A program made the position numbers and the translations under genes. Of a stretch of 64,000 nt of DNA, positions 4,715 through 61,748 are shown one piece after another (the stretch's first letter is position 1; each line of letters opens with the position of its first letter). Source of the DNA: Escherichia phage T4; sequence record NC_000866.4, one strand, 5' to 3'. The notes under the pieces are model-generated. The model searched no databases, had not been told where the DNA came from, and was given only the letters and a program-made list of their open reading frames with translations.

Positions 4715-5270
4715 ATTTTTCTAGTAATAAATCACTTTCAAAATTAGGATTTTCCACTAATTTATCAAAAAGATCATCAACAATATTCAAGATATTTCTT
4801 TTACTAAGAATACGTTTATTTTCATGCTTCGTTTCAGAATCAACTATAAGAGTAAAGAAATATTTCTTTCCCTGAAATTTTACCGTAGTATCAATATAAA
4901 ATAAATTTGACTTTTGTAAATTACGTTTAAACCATGCGTCACTTAAACTATAAACACCGAGATAATCAAAATCGTCGTTTAAATAACAAACTGACCATTC
5001 AGGAGAAATGAAATCAGTAAATTCAACATCAAAATCACATGTCAATGAATGAATTGATTCAATACTGTTAATAAGTATTCCAGGACGTATTAAAGACTTT
5101 TTACCTCTGGAAAATCTTCCAGAAAGACTTTCATCAGTTTCATATGAAGAACCCCAATAATAATTACGTCCTTTTGCCATATGTTTAAGAGCATTTAGTA
5201 ATTGGTCTGGAACATCAACGTGTCTTTGGAACTCTTCAAACATTGAATTGAAATCACTTTGCATTTTCAT
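4662..5270 (-). CDS. hypothetical early protein (T4 e.5 position)
   Basis: 202-aa ORF; no motif recognised. Confidence 0.6.
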   Translation of the reverse strand: MKMQSDFNSMFEEFQRHVDVPDQLLNALKHMAKGRNYYWGSSYETDESLSGRFSRGKKSLIRPGILINSIESIHSLTCDFDVEFTDFISPEWSVCYLNDDFDYLGVYSLSDAWFKRNLQKSNLFYIDTTVKFQGKKYFFTLIVDSETKHENKRILSKRNILNIVDDLFDKLVENPNFESDLLLEKFVKECREYVKAITIPSK

Positions 5271-5290
5271 TCCTATTTACTCCAAGTAAT

Positions 5291-5306
5291 AGGGGCCGAA
5301 GCCCCT
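5291..5306 (-). other. GC-rich tetraloop RNA hairpin (AGGGGC-UUCG-GCCCCU on the transcript)
   Basis: perfect 6-bp GC stem with UUCG loop between e.6 and e.5; identical 19-mer recurs at 46166..46184. Confidence 0.5.
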
Positions 5307-5311
5307 TATCA

Positions 5312-5905
5312 TTATTTCAGAGAATTAATATATTCCTGAACATCGGCAGAGGTAGTTTCAACCCCAGAAATATTACCATTAAAGGTTTCAACTCGAGCAA
5401 GAGTATCTTCAATATCAACCTTAGTCAGTGCTGCAATTTCAACTACATCATCAGCAGTACTAATTCCAAGGGCATTTGCTGCACGAGTTTCACGGATATA
5501 TTCCAATTTAACTGCAAGTTCTTGGCGAGCATCATCTAACTCAACTACTTTCTTGGCGATTTCAATTCGCATTTCAGCATAACCATCAGCTTTAGTAGTC
5601 AGCTGTTCAGCTGTTCGACGATATAGCAAGCCGAGTTTAGCATGCATTGTTACATCTTGACCTTCGGAAAGAAGCTTGCGAATTTCACGCTCTTTTGATT
5701 CGGCCTGTTTATTCTTTTCAACAATAAGTTCACGAATACGTTTTTCTTCATTAATAGATTTAACAGAAGCAGTTTTTAGGTCTTTAATTTTATCAAGTAG
5801 TTTTGCTGCTGCAGCAGTATACTGTTCTTCAACAGATAGATTTTTAGCCATTGCAGAACCAAGTTTAGTGCGAATAAACTCAACAATTTTCTTCAGTGTG
5901 TTCAT
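5312..5905 (-). CDS. hypothetical coiled-coil protein (T4 e.6 position)
   Basis: 197-aa ORF rich in K/E/R/A with coiled-coil character; possible PspA/IM30-like fold (speculative). Confidence 0.6.
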
Positions 5906-7172: not shown

Positions 7173-7247
7173 TGGTATCCCGCCCTGGGATCGAACCAGG
7201 ACCGCAAACTTAGAAGGATCGTATGCTATCCATTACACCAGCGGGAC
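7173..7247 (-). tRNA. tRNA-Arg (anticodon TCT), CCA encoded
   Basis: reverse complement reads GTCCCGC...CCTTCTAAG...GGTTCGATCC...GCGGGATACCA with a paired acceptor stem and canonical T-arm. Confidence 0.85.
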
Positions 7248-23155: not shown

Positions 23156-23160
23156 ATTAA

Positions 23161-23185
23161 GGGAGCCCATGGGCTCCCTTTTTCT
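23161..23185 (+). terminator. rho-independent terminator after gene 8
   Basis: GGGAGCCCATGGGCTCCC perfect hairpin followed by TTTTT. Confidence 0.7.
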
Positions 23186-23186
23186 T

Positions 23187-23194
23187 TATAAATA
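23187..23194 (+). promoter_or_regulatory. late promoter TATAAATA for gene 9
   Basis: exact TATAAATA 25 nt upstream of the gene 9 start. Confidence 0.65.
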
Positions 23195-29592: not shown

Positions 29593-29595
29593 CAT

Positions 29596-29611
29596 GGGGC
29601 CGCAAGGCCCC
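29596..29611 (+). other. GC-rich GNRA-tetraloop hairpin after wac
   Basis: GGGGCC-GCAA-GGCCCC immediately after the wac stop; no U-tract, so more likely an RNA-stability or processing element than a strong terminator. Confidence 0.45.
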
Positions 29612-29623
29612 AAAGGATTTTAA

Positions 29624-36531: not shown

Positions 36532-36549
36532 GGCCTGTTTCGGCAGGCC
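36532..36549 (+). other. RNA hairpin after gene 18
   Basis: GGCCTG-TTTCGG-CAGGCC (6-bp GC stem) directly upstream of a late promoter. Confidence 0.4.
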
Positions 36550-36550
36550 A

Positions 36551-36558
36551 TATAAATA
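36551..36558 (+). promoter_or_regulatory. late promoter TATAAATA (distal, gene 19)
   Basis: exact TATAAATA. Confidence 0.55.
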
Positions 36559-37123: not shown

Positions 37124-37130
37124 AATGAAT

Positions 37131-37144
37131 GGGGAGAAATCCCC
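37131..37144 (+). other. GNRA-tetraloop hairpin after gene 19
   Basis: GGGGA-GAAA-TCCCC. Confidence 0.4.
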
Positions 37145-37155
37145 ATCCTGCTTAA

Positions 37156-42510: not shown

Positions 42511-42536
42511 TCTCTAACGATAGAAACACAATTTTA

Positions 42537-42560
42537 GGGAACCTTCGGGTTCCCTTTTTT
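42537..42560 (+). terminator. rho-independent terminator after gene 23
   Basis: GGGAACCTTCGGGTTCCC perfect hairpin followed by TTTTTT. Confidence 0.75.
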
Positions 42561-44606: not shown

Positions 44607-44613
44607 AACAAAG

Positions 44614-44634
44614 GGACCTTTCGGTCCCTTTTTA
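44614..44634. terminator. terminator hairpin between convergent genes 24 and rnlB
   Basis: GGGACCTTTCGGTCCC followed by TTTTT on the plus strand; the same hairpin lies just past the rnlB stop on the minus strand. Confidence 0.7.
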
Positions 44635-45928: not shown

Positions 45929-46097
45929 TTTTCACCTTTTTATTGATATGTCTTTTTCTATAGACAACTTTTTCTCGAGCCCATAATACAGCCACTTCTT
46001 TTGCCTGTAAGTTTAATTCACGAGCAATTTCAATGAATGACTTTCCAGACTCATGAAGAGTAAACACCACAACCTCAGTTCTCATAATCAATCTCAT
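45915..46097 (-). CDS. hypothetical small protein with helix-turn-helix-like segment (T4 24.3 position)
   Basis: 60-aa ORF; SGKSFIEIARELNLQAKEV resembles an HTH. Confidence 0.45.
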   Translation of the reverse strand: MRLIMRTEVVVFTLHESGKSFIEIARELNLQAKEVAVLWAREKVVYRKRHINKKVKNGTV

Positions 46098-46165
46098 GTT
46101 ATCGAGTTGGTGCCATTATATACATCATTTTCTGATTGTGTTTTGTGTGCTTTCAAAATGAAGAA

Positions 46166-46181
46166 AGGGGCCGAAGCCCCT
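46166..46181 (-). other. GC-rich UUCG-tetraloop hairpin after hoc
   Basis: AGGGGC-CGAA-GCCCCT (plus strand); identical to the element at 5291..5306. Confidence 0.5.
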
Positions 46182-46186
46182 TATGA

Positions 46187-47317
46187 TTATGGATAGGTAT
46201 AGATGATACCAGTTTCTAAAGCAGTTTTATGAATGATGTATCCATTACGCGATTCTTGGACATCAACTTCTGGATAGTCTTTCATCATCTTCTGGAGAGT
46301 GTAACGATGCAGGTAATATTTACTATCTGGGTCGTCAGTTTTCCAATCTTTACCTTCTTCGGTCATTTTTTGGATTTCATCCATAACCCACCAACCGCAC
46401 CAGATGTAAGCTGAGCTACGGTGTGGAAGAGGATGAACATAAGGTAATTCACCTTCTGGTTCTGGAGCAACTTTAGCCGTGACTGTTACATTACCAGTTT
46501 TGGTAACGGTTACAGGGTTATAATCTGCAGCAGTAACAGTTGCAGTAACTTCAATAGTTTGACTTCCAACAGATGAGGTATCGACAGTATATACGTTAGT
46601 TGACCCTTCTACAGGAGAAGAATCTTTCTTCCATGAGTAAGTAATTTGTGCTTCTTCTGGAGCACCCGTAACATTAGCCGTAAATGTAGCCGAAGCATCT
46701 TGCTGAACATTAATAGAAGGAGGAGTCAATGTAACCTGTGGATTCATTGTCTTCTTATTAACCGTTAATGATACTTCATTAGAAGTAACGCTTAGTGCAT
46801 CATAATCTGTCGCGGTTACTTGGGCTACGCATTTAATTCTTTTTACTCCACTTGTAGTTGGAGTATAGCTAAATGTAGAGTTAGTTTCTCCACCAACTTG
46901 TGAATCATCTACATACCACTGATACGTAGCAGATGCTCCATCAGGTTGAGAAGCTAAGGCAGCAGTAAATTGAACTGGGGTTCCAATCACTCCAGCCGCA
47001 GGACTAGCAGGAGTTACGGCTAAGGTAGTCGTCTGTGTCTTATTTTTAACTGTGATAGTTGTTGTCGCTTCAGCCGTTTCCGGGCCTCCTTCAGAAAGTG
47101 TATTTGTTGCAACTACTTTAATAGTCTTTTGACCGGCAGGTCCTTTTAGTACATAACTAAAAGTTGCTTCAGCTCCATCTTGTGGAACATTATCTACGCT
47201 CCAAGCATATGTAATAGTTCCGCCTCCAGTTTGACCACTGGGTGTAGCAGTAAACTGCTTAGTTTCATCAATAACCCCTGTAGGTGTTTTAGGAGTTATA
47301 TCAACTGTAAAAGTCAT
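46187..47317 (-). CDS. hoc: highly immunogenic outer capsid protein
   Basis: 376-aa ORF with three tandem ~90-aa Ig-like repeats (each containing FTA...TYxW...G) and a distinct C-terminal domain. Confidence 0.85.
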   Translation of the reverse strand: MTFTVDITPKTPTGVIDETKQFTATPSGQTGGGTITYAWSVDNVPQDGAEATFSYVLKGPAGQKTIKVVATNTLSEGGPETAEATTTITVKNKTQTTTLAVTPASPAAGVIGTPVQFTAALASQPDGASATYQWYVDDSQVGGETNSTFSYTPTTSGVKRIKCVAQVTATDYDALSVTSNEVSLTVNKKTMNPQVTLTPPSINVQQDASATFTANVTGAPEEAQITYSWKKDSSPVEGSTNVYTVDTSSVGSQTIEVTATVTAADYNPVTVTKTGNVTVTAKVAPEPEGELPYVHPLPHRSSAYIWCGWWVMDEIQKMTEEGKDWKTDDPDSKYYLHRYTLQKMMKDYPEVDVQESRNGYIIHKTALETGIIYTYP

Positions 47318-58721: not shown

Positions 58722-58740
58722 GGACCGAAAGGTCCATATT
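58722..58740. terminator. terminator-like hairpin between convergent genes 54 and alt.-3
   Basis: GGACC-GAAA-GGTCC followed by ATATTTTTATTT. Confidence 0.45.
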
Positions 58741-59093: not shown

Positions 59094-59450
59094 TACATTT
59101 TGAACTTTTTAGTACGCGTAATAGGCATGCGTCGATTTTATACTGTTTCATTGTTTGAAGAGCAGTATCAAAAACAGCATTAATGACACCAATTGGATTT
59201 CCACCCAAGTTTTTAAGCTTAACTAATGATAGTTTCTCATTAACACCTATCATTACGATATGCATCATTTTATCGCCTGGTTTAACGTTTTATTTGTATC
59301 ACCGCCAGAGGTGTATGTACAAAATCTAAATCCAGGAAGTACACTTTCTTCACCGGCTTGAATAGCAAAAATTTGTGGTATTTTATGCTTAGGATTTAAT
59401 GTAACAACCGGCGCCGAAGCGCCGTCAAATAATTCTGTAATAAGTTCCAT
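59065..59450 (-). pseudogene. frameshifted partial duplicate of the alt 5' region (two ORFs of 61 and 67 aa; T4 alt.-1 and alt.-2 positions)
   Basis: ORF 59265..59450 aligns to Alt residues 1-55 and ORF 59065..59268 to Alt residues ~64-130; one nucleotide missing relative to alt between 59268 and 59300 shifts the frame; 28-bp identity with the alt 5' end. Confidence 0.6.
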
Positions 59451-61530: not shown

Positions 61531-61538
61531 TATTTATA
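61531..61538 (-). promoter_or_regulatory. late promoter TATAAATA for alt
   Basis: plus-strand TATTTATA = minus-strand TATAAATA 29 nt upstream of the alt start. Confidence 0.6.
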
Positions 61539-61543
61539 AAATT

Positions 61544-61561
61544 AAAGGCCCGAAGGCCTTT
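61544..61561 (-). other. UUCG-tetraloop hairpin upstream of the alt late promoter
   Basis: AAAGGCC-CGAA-GGCCTTT (7-bp stem) immediately after the stop of the upstream small ORF. Confidence 0.45.
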
Positions 61562-61748
61562 AATAATCTATTGGTAAGAGAGTACGATATATTTCAAACT
61601 TTGGACCTTTTTCATAAGCATCAAATGTTTCTGTGAATTTATTATAAGCATATGCATCTATAAATTCAATCATGATTTGTGATACAGAAGTAGAAACATC
61701 TCCACCTTCTTTTTGAGCCACGACAATTGTTTCTAAGTAAGCTTTCAT
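61560..61748 (-). CDS. hypothetical small protein between gene 30 and alt
   Basis: 62-aa ORF, ATGA-coupled to gene 30. Confidence 0.5.
   Translation of the reverse strand: MKAYLETIVVAQKEGGDVSTSVSQIMIEFIDAYAYNKFTETFDAYEKGPKFEIYRTLLPIDY

Follow-up and report, generated by a model that had tools for sequence, protein, structure and literature searches.

The two identical GC-rich hairpins that the genome of Escherichia phage T4 carries after gene e.6 and after hoc are real, and they are ordinary members of the long-known set of UUCG hairpins located after T4 genes. It is very probable that they represent independent members of the T4 intercistronic C(UUCG)G hairpins, acting on the mRNA, and that their identity is convergent, with the hoc copy serving as a terminator and the e.6 copy as a decay barrier or attenuator. 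The original report of C(UUCG)G hairpins in the intercistronic mRNA of T4 is said to be that of Tuerk et al. in PNAS in 1988. The present elements resemble those hairpins in the UUCG loop closed by a C-G pair, in the short GC stem, in the location between cistrons and in the use of the sense strand, and nothing substantive differs. The reading of T4 UUCG hairpins as terminators or stabilisers is supported here and is not new: it was in the mRNA of T4 that the UUCG tetraloop first came to light, and the hairpin found there served for the characterisation of its stability (PMC4371310). Both sites, moreover, carry prior annotation: GenBank entry L13089.1 (T4 msp1-msp8) marks the exact position of the e.6/e.5 hairpin as 'stem_loop, putative', and the hairpin orthologous to that of hoc in phage G4498 (MK327939) is annotated as an ARNold terminator.

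The window analysed here, a stretch of 64,000 nucleotides from record NC_000866.4, was aligned to the T4T record HM137666 (about 63990-128017, 99.9% identity), whose annotation was transferred onto it. The 19-mer AGGGGCCGAAGCCCCTTAT has exactly two matches in the window, at 5291-5309 and 46166-46184, with no third match even when three mismatches are allowed, and none was found in 100 dinucleotide shuffles of the window. The exact duplication at two loci put forward in the initial annotation is thus confirmed. Megablast searches with both sites returned 100% matches to T4 records, and in T4T the 19-mer occurs solely at the two intergenic sites, frequent occurrence within genes in both orientations not being seen, in agreement with a position-specific element. 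Since e.6, e.5, hoc and 24.3 all lie on the minus strand, the mRNA reads AAGGGGC-UUCG-GCCCCU(U) at both sites, and a C-G pair closes the UUCG loop (GGGGC-UUCG-GCCCC when the minus strand, which is the sense strand, is read); the gene strands and the sequence hence bear out the UUCG tetraloop stem that had been proposed for the minus-strand RNA of both loci. The sense-strand identity between the sites extends to 26 nt with one mismatch, ATAAT[G/C]ATAAGGGGCTTCGGCCCCT, a block in which the UAA stop codon is separated by three bases from another TAA in the same frame, and outside of which the flanks of the e.6 and hoc sites are unrelated. The 5' flanks agree at 9 of 10 positions, which is somewhat above the expectation from AT-richness (a rough estimate of about 0.02, for the six positions outside the 19-mer). 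The nearest-neighbour energy of the 18-mer is -12.1 kcal/mol, in a model that gives UUCG no advantage over GNRA or UUUU loops, and the folding z-scores of the 64-71 nt contexts (-1.6 and -2.5) are modest because the shuffles retain the local G and C.

The coordinates of both sites and of the other hairpins considered are collected in the table below.

Coordinates of the hairpins and of their associated elements (window numbering unless a record is named)
Feature	Position	Strand	Remarks
e.6/e.5 intercistronic hairpin AGGGGC-UUCG-GCCCCU	5291..5306	-	5 nt past e.6 stop; no U tract after
Shared 5' flank A-UAA-UGA-UA on mRNA	5307..5316	-	e.6 stop UAA 5312-5314, then in-frame UGA and UAA
GGAG Shine-Dalgarno of e.5	5280..5283	-	7 nt 3' of hairpin; possible RegB cleavage motif
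Hairpin after gene 8, AAGGGAGCC-CAUG-GGCUCCCUU	23159..23180	+	U-rich tail, then late-promoter motif at 23187; same class, absent from the initial annotation
Hairpin after wac, UGGGGCC-GCAA-GGCCCCA	29595..29612	+	tetraloop GCAA
Hairpin after gene 18, GGCCUG-UUUCGG-CAGGCC	36532..36549	+	hexaloop; TATAAATA follows at 36551
Hairpin after gene 19, AUGGGGA-GAAA-UCCCCAU	37129..37146	+	loop GAAA
Hairpin after gene 23, AGGGAACC-UUCG-GGUUCCCU, then UUUUUCUAUUUU	42536..42555	+	between convergent genes 23 and segD
Hairpin of genes 24/rnlB (convergent), AAAGGGACC-UUUC/GAAA-GGUCCCUUU	44610..44631	.	bidirectional: UUUC on +, GAAA on -; T-rich tails on both strands
U-rich tail UCUUCAUUUUGA	46153..46164	-	directly after hoc hairpin; with the two closing U of the stem, UUUCUUCAUUUU
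hoc 3' hairpin AAGGGGC-UUCG-GCCCCUU, 7-bp stem	46165..46182	-	4 nt past hoc stop
Shared 5' flank A-UAA-UCA-UA on mRNA	46183..46191	-	hoc stop UAA 46187-46189 and second in-frame UAA
Hairpin of genes 54/alt.-3 (convergent), GGACC-GAAA/UUUC-GGUCC	58722..58735	.	loop GAAA
Hairpin at alt.1 stop (alt.1/alt), AUUAAAGGCC-UUCG-GGCCUUUAAU	61541..61564	-	late-promoter motif TATAAATA (61531-61538) directly after
soc / 30.9 duplicate AGGACUCCUUCGGGAGUCCUUUUUU	HM137666 15289-15310 and 130357-130376		outside the window; loci L005 and L007

Hairpins of this kind are far more abundant than base composition would produce. In the window, 15 GC-rich tetraloop hairpins with perfect stems were counted, compared with 2.3 +/- 1.6 in dinucleotide shuffles, an excess of about 7-fold, and 5 with UUCG or CGAA loops, compared with 0.02; over the whole T4T genome the counts are 50 against 5.6 for GC-rich tetraloop hairpins and 22 against 0.03 for those of UUCG type. 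Their placement is similarly uneven: non-genic DNA makes up 4.0% of the window yet holds 12 of the 35 GC-rich hairpins with loops of 3-8 nt, and in the window scan most of the intergenic ones start 2-6 nt past a stop codon. That the match between e.6 and hoc is a coincidence without function would find an argument in the small size of the element and in nothing else; with no match at all in the shuffles, hairpin counts 7-fold to several-hundred-fold above them and, as shown below, a hairpin position conserved across phages, the probability of a chance match is next to nil and this reading was rejected. All the hairpins listed as related in the initial annotation (those of wac, 18, 19, 23, 24, 54 and alt) are present, with the correction that the loop after gene 18 has 6 nt and is not a tetraloop.

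The orientation of the loop is informative about the level at which the hairpins act. In the T4T genome UUCG lies on the sense strand of the upstream gene in 18 of the 18 intergenic GC-rich hairpins with this loop, an outcome with odds of about 4 in a million if orientation were random, and it is on the transcribed sense strand in all 5 window cases too. This asymmetry points to a function in RNA and not as a DNA palindrome. The palindromes, being perfect inverted repeats in DNA, could in principle work as such, that is, as a cruciform or hairpin target of a DNA-binding protein or endonuclease VII or as a recombination initiator, the RNA hairpin being incidental, and Arbiol et al. speculate that a GGGG...CCCC stem is the target of a DNA-binding recombination protein (PMC2839356). 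A palindrome, however, should ignore the orientation of its loop; the loop classes observed, UUCG and GNRA, are RNA-specific stabilisers and the hairpins keep a fixed relation to stop codons and U tracts, so that an action as DNA was discarded as very unlikely. The results support the hairpins being position-specific RNA-level elements at gene 3' ends. The notion that they form a deliberate set of 3'-end stabilisers or terminators gains support from the enrichment, the non-genic placement, the sense asymmetry, the conserved position and the terminator score of the hoc copy, the activities themselves being predicted from these features.

Several further observations were made in the course of the scan. 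Hairpins begin 2-6 nt past the stops of wac, 8, 24, rnlB, hoc, e.6, 19, segD, 54 and alt.-3, so near the stop codon that a terminating ribosome would cover the hairpin, which could therefore fold only once the ribosome has gone. Inside the alt.-1 reading frame, annotated as the remnant of a decayed second alt copy, there is a hairpin CGGCGC-UUCG-GCGCCG (59409-59424, minus strand), a rare sense-oriented UUCG case outside intergenic spacers. The Rfam scan of the whole window returned eight tRNAs only and no family match at any hairpin. One of these tRNAs, at 7176-7247 on the minus strand, is full-length with 72 nt, and the T4T record annotates this tRNA-Arg as 51 nt only; owing to the short annotation, the hairpin scan labelled the T-arm of the tRNA (7176-7247) as 'intergenic'.

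The hoc copy, located 79 nt upstream of gene 24.3, scores as an intrinsic terminator in the terminator scan, with a 7-bp stem containing 5 GC pairs followed by UUUCUUCAUUUU. It shares with rho-independent terminators the GC-rich stem of at least 5 bp, the short loop and the U-rich tract directly 3', and differs from them in that the U tract is interrupted, being broken by a C and an A, so that termination at hoc may be partial. Judging from its sequence, the hoc copy is most likely a rho-independent terminator that leaves an exonuclease-resistant hairpin at the 3' end. It would terminate transcripts reading through inh-hoc, and the folded hairpin would then shield the new 3' end from host 3'-to-5' exonucleases; the host RNase II, RNase R and PNPase degrade T4 mRNA, on which RegB also acts (PMC3014915). 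As a result, the expression of hoc would be set apart from that of the downstream 24.3, 24.2 and rnlB. A literature search for T4 Term-seq, 3'-end maps, a characterised hoc terminator or reporter data on the two sites yielded nothing specific. An early or middle promoter downstream of the hoc hairpin was considered and rejected, as a TATAAT lies 46 nt downstream but has no convincing -35 element; the promoter scan of the hoc/24.3 spacer gave no more than a weak site with 9 of 12 matches (TTGAAA, spacer of 18 nt, GAAAAT). A MotA-box-like motif near hoc, TGCTTTCA, lies on the other strand, lacks a following -10 element and was likewise rejected.

The surroundings of the e.6 copy are of another kind. 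The e.6 stop codon is at 5312-5314 and the e.5 start at 5270, with 20 nt between the hairpin and the start codon; the tail of the copy is AUUACUUGGAG, and the hairpin runs directly into the e.5 ribosome-binding site. The U tract required by the terminator scan is absent 3' of it (tail AUUACUUGGAGU). This copy thus departs from rho-independent terminators both in lacking a U tract and in having the e.5 start 20 nt on, and the absence of the tract together with the abutting ribosome-binding site makes a decay barrier or attenuator more likely than a terminator. Efficient termination would be unlikely here. More probably the hairpin constitutes an intercistronic barrier against 3' exonucleases, shielding the e.6 segment after cleavage downstream, for example at the GGAG of e.5; it may in addition attenuate transcription weakly, or serve as a nucleus of folding by which the ribosome-binding site of e.5 is insulated. 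The resemblance to the 3' stem-loop barriers that act against PNPase and RNase II in E. coli operons (REP-type) lies in a stable hairpin past a stop codon, the lack of a terminator tail and the polycistronic message, and the difference in that e.6/e.5 is a single 16-nt hairpin, the REP consensus being 35-40 nt. A RegB cut at the e.5 GGAG would place the hairpin close to the new 3' end, and from its sequence this GGAG is a possible RegB target, with a context, GGAGUAAAUAG, that matches poorly the strong-site consensus GGAGRAYARAA established for RegB specificity (PMC3014915). An extended helix between the e.5 GGAG and a CUCU of the e.6 3' end appeared in the minimum-free-energy fold but, with a z-score of only -1.6, was not relied on.

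The pair formed by e.6 and hoc is not unique, for T4T contains four copies of the 16-mer AGGGGCUUCGGCCCCU and a second exact duplicate. The four copies (regA/43, e.6/e.5, hoc/24.3 and 37/38) are all intercistronic and sense-oriented; five copies of AAGGGCUUCGGCCCUU and two of AAGGCC-UUCG-GGCCUU are also present; the second exact duplicate is a 25-nt sequence, AGGACUCCUUCGGGAGUCCUUUUUU on the sense strand, found after soc and after 30.9. Such repetition could be taken to mean that one site received a physical copy of the element from the other, or that the sites were kept identical, by short-patch gene conversion, template switching or stem-loop recombination, and the 26 nt common to both sites, which include flank and hold one mismatch, would fit with it. 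T4-type phages do recombine at stem-loop/promoter cassettes, and the T4 deletions of Mosig often ended at GGGC...GCCC (PMC2839356; PMC4122927). Copying is nevertheless improbable, in the first place because the similarity ends at 26 nt, and further because of the behaviour of both sites among relatives and the recurrence of the same sequence elsewhere.

For the relatives, 15 e.6 loci and 21 Hoc loci were retrieved from IMG/VR. A hairpin stands right after the stop codon at every one of them, and stems and loops vary. Variants at the e.6 site include GGGAGAC-UUCG, GGAGGAC-UCCG, GGGGGC-UUU and GGGGGC-AAA, and those at the hoc site GGGACC-UUCG, GGAGCC-UUCG, AUGGGGC-UUCG, GGGCC-GCAA, GGGCC-UUGC, GCGCGCUC-UCAC and others. 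In an alignment of 14 distinct hoc-site hairpins, anchored on the hairpin and hence biased to structure, 96.9% of cells were paired and 6 of the 7 stem pairs showed double compensatory changes; hairpins that correspond in position may have replaced one another instead of sharing descent. The 3' environments are maintained as well, with a U tract nearly always 3' of the hoc-site hairpin, in some relatives stronger than that of T4, and the e.5 ribosome-binding site 3' of the e.6-site hairpin. In some relatives a GTTTAC-type early promoter follows the hoc-site hairpin. No indels, deletions or replacements were found beside either site among the retrieved relatives, flanking genes and hairpin being always present, and this lack of presence/absence polymorphism speaks against a copied element. 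Where both sites are on one contig, in five lineages, their stems differ, as where e.6 has GGGAGAC-UUCG and hoc has GGGCC-UUGC or GCAA, from which it follows that the two sites do not evolve in concert. GGGGC-UUCG at both sites is restricted to the T4/T2-type clade among the relatives examined, and two members of that clade (L023/L024) keep the 16-mer at hoc behind another 5' flank (TAATCTCAGGGGC), a further point against transfer of the block. The prefix TAATGATAA of the T4 sites also precedes the hoc-site hairpin in L035-L037. As a separate observation, the hoc-site hairpin of L035/L036 and that of L037, about 8-26 nt past the hoc stop, have the same stem AAAGGGCC/GGCCCUUU and differ in the loop, UUGC versus GCAA, a 4-nt loop inversion as expected of intrastrand template switching within a palindrome.

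The 19-mer also recurs outside T4. The sense 19-mer ATAAGGGGCTTCGGCCCCT occurs in at least 120 IMG/VR stretches, and the 80 loci examined resolve into 50 unrelated flank contexts on contigs of 31-57% GC, T4-like flanks being found at one of the 80 (L098). A T tract comes next in 37 of the 50 contexts and a Shine-Dalgarno plus start codon in 22, so that both T4 arrangements are represented. A control 19-mer of identical composition, its loop permuted to UCUG, gave no matches in IMG/VR. The 19-mer was found in addition in 57 bacterial genomes of many phyla, where our own calculation gives about 4 expected in uniform random sequence of that size. When all 1024 possible 5-bp Watson-Crick stems were placed on a UUCG loop and ranked in the nearest-neighbour model, GGGGC tied for the top with GGGCC, GGCCC and GCCCC, and these four stems are those used by T4 and its relatives. 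Identity by convergence would arise because no 5-bp hairpin is thermodynamically more favourable than GGGGC/GCCCC on UUCG; the flank that the sites share upstream would be a tandem-stop arrangement (UAA-NNN-UAA) in an AT-rich spacer. Convergence on this optimum suffices to explain the identity without any copying event. The suggestion of the initial annotation that the exact duplication points to copying between sites accordingly does not stand, in view of the recurrence in unrelated contexts, the empty result for the permuted control, the differing stems per contig and the optimality of the stem. A weaker form of it, where the T4 UUCG hairpins are partly non-independent and occasional short-patch gene conversion or template switching homogenises their sequences, giving the four AGGGGCUUCGGCCCCU and the soc/30.9 25-mer pair, is held to be equally doubtful; if true, the hairpins would have a second role, offering microhomology for the modular shuffling known from the stem-loop cassettes described next.

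Those cassettes, the PeSLs (promoter-early stem-loops) of T4-type phages (Arbiol 2010, PMC2839356; Comeau 2014, PMC4122927), consist of a stem-loop, an early promoter (-35, a spacer of about 17 nt, -10), a Shine-Dalgarno and a start codon, and intergenic stem-loops in T4-like phages work as terminators (PMC2839356). The sites studied here resemble them as intergenic G-run/C-run stem-loops with a putative terminator function in T4-like genomes, and the cassettes provide the framework for stem-loop-mediated shuffling. They differ in the promoter: none exists between the e.6/e.5 hairpin and the start codon, where there is no room for one, and hoc/24.3 has a TATAAT only. Neither T4 site was therefore identified as a PeSL, which for e.6 counts against copying. 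A mobile REP- or MITE-like repeat was rejected on the grounds that identity ends at 26 nt, that the hairpin is in all relatives retrieved, that stems differ per contig and that no Rfam family matches.

Convergent identity of the two hairpins carries a caution, namely that an exact repeat of 19-26 nt in a phage genome is not by itself a sign of duplication or mobility. Unrelated phage contexts, at least dozens of them, and many bacterial phyla have arrived independently at an optimal small hairpin with tandem stops. The T4 copies, moreover, could be a clean natural pair for separating terminator from decay-barrier activity, since one and the same stem-loop is followed by a U tract at hoc and by a ribosome-binding site at e.6.

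The comparison with other records disclosed some differences in the reference sequence itself. In gene 24.3, at 45973/45974, the window lacks 33 bp (CTCGAGTTTCAAATTTATTCTTAGCAGTCATAG) that each of the other 11 T4-type records among the hits contains. The absent segment is in frame, corresponds to 11 codons of gp24.3 and is bounded by two CTCGAG (XhoI) sites; from its sequence the gap looks like a small restriction fragment lost in the original clone-based reference sequencing, rather than biology. In vs.8, at 798-806, the window has an in-frame insertion of 9 bp (CTCTATAAG) with respect to T4T. In all, the window and T4T are separated by about 85 small differences, many of which are adjacent-base swaps typical of old sequencing errors.
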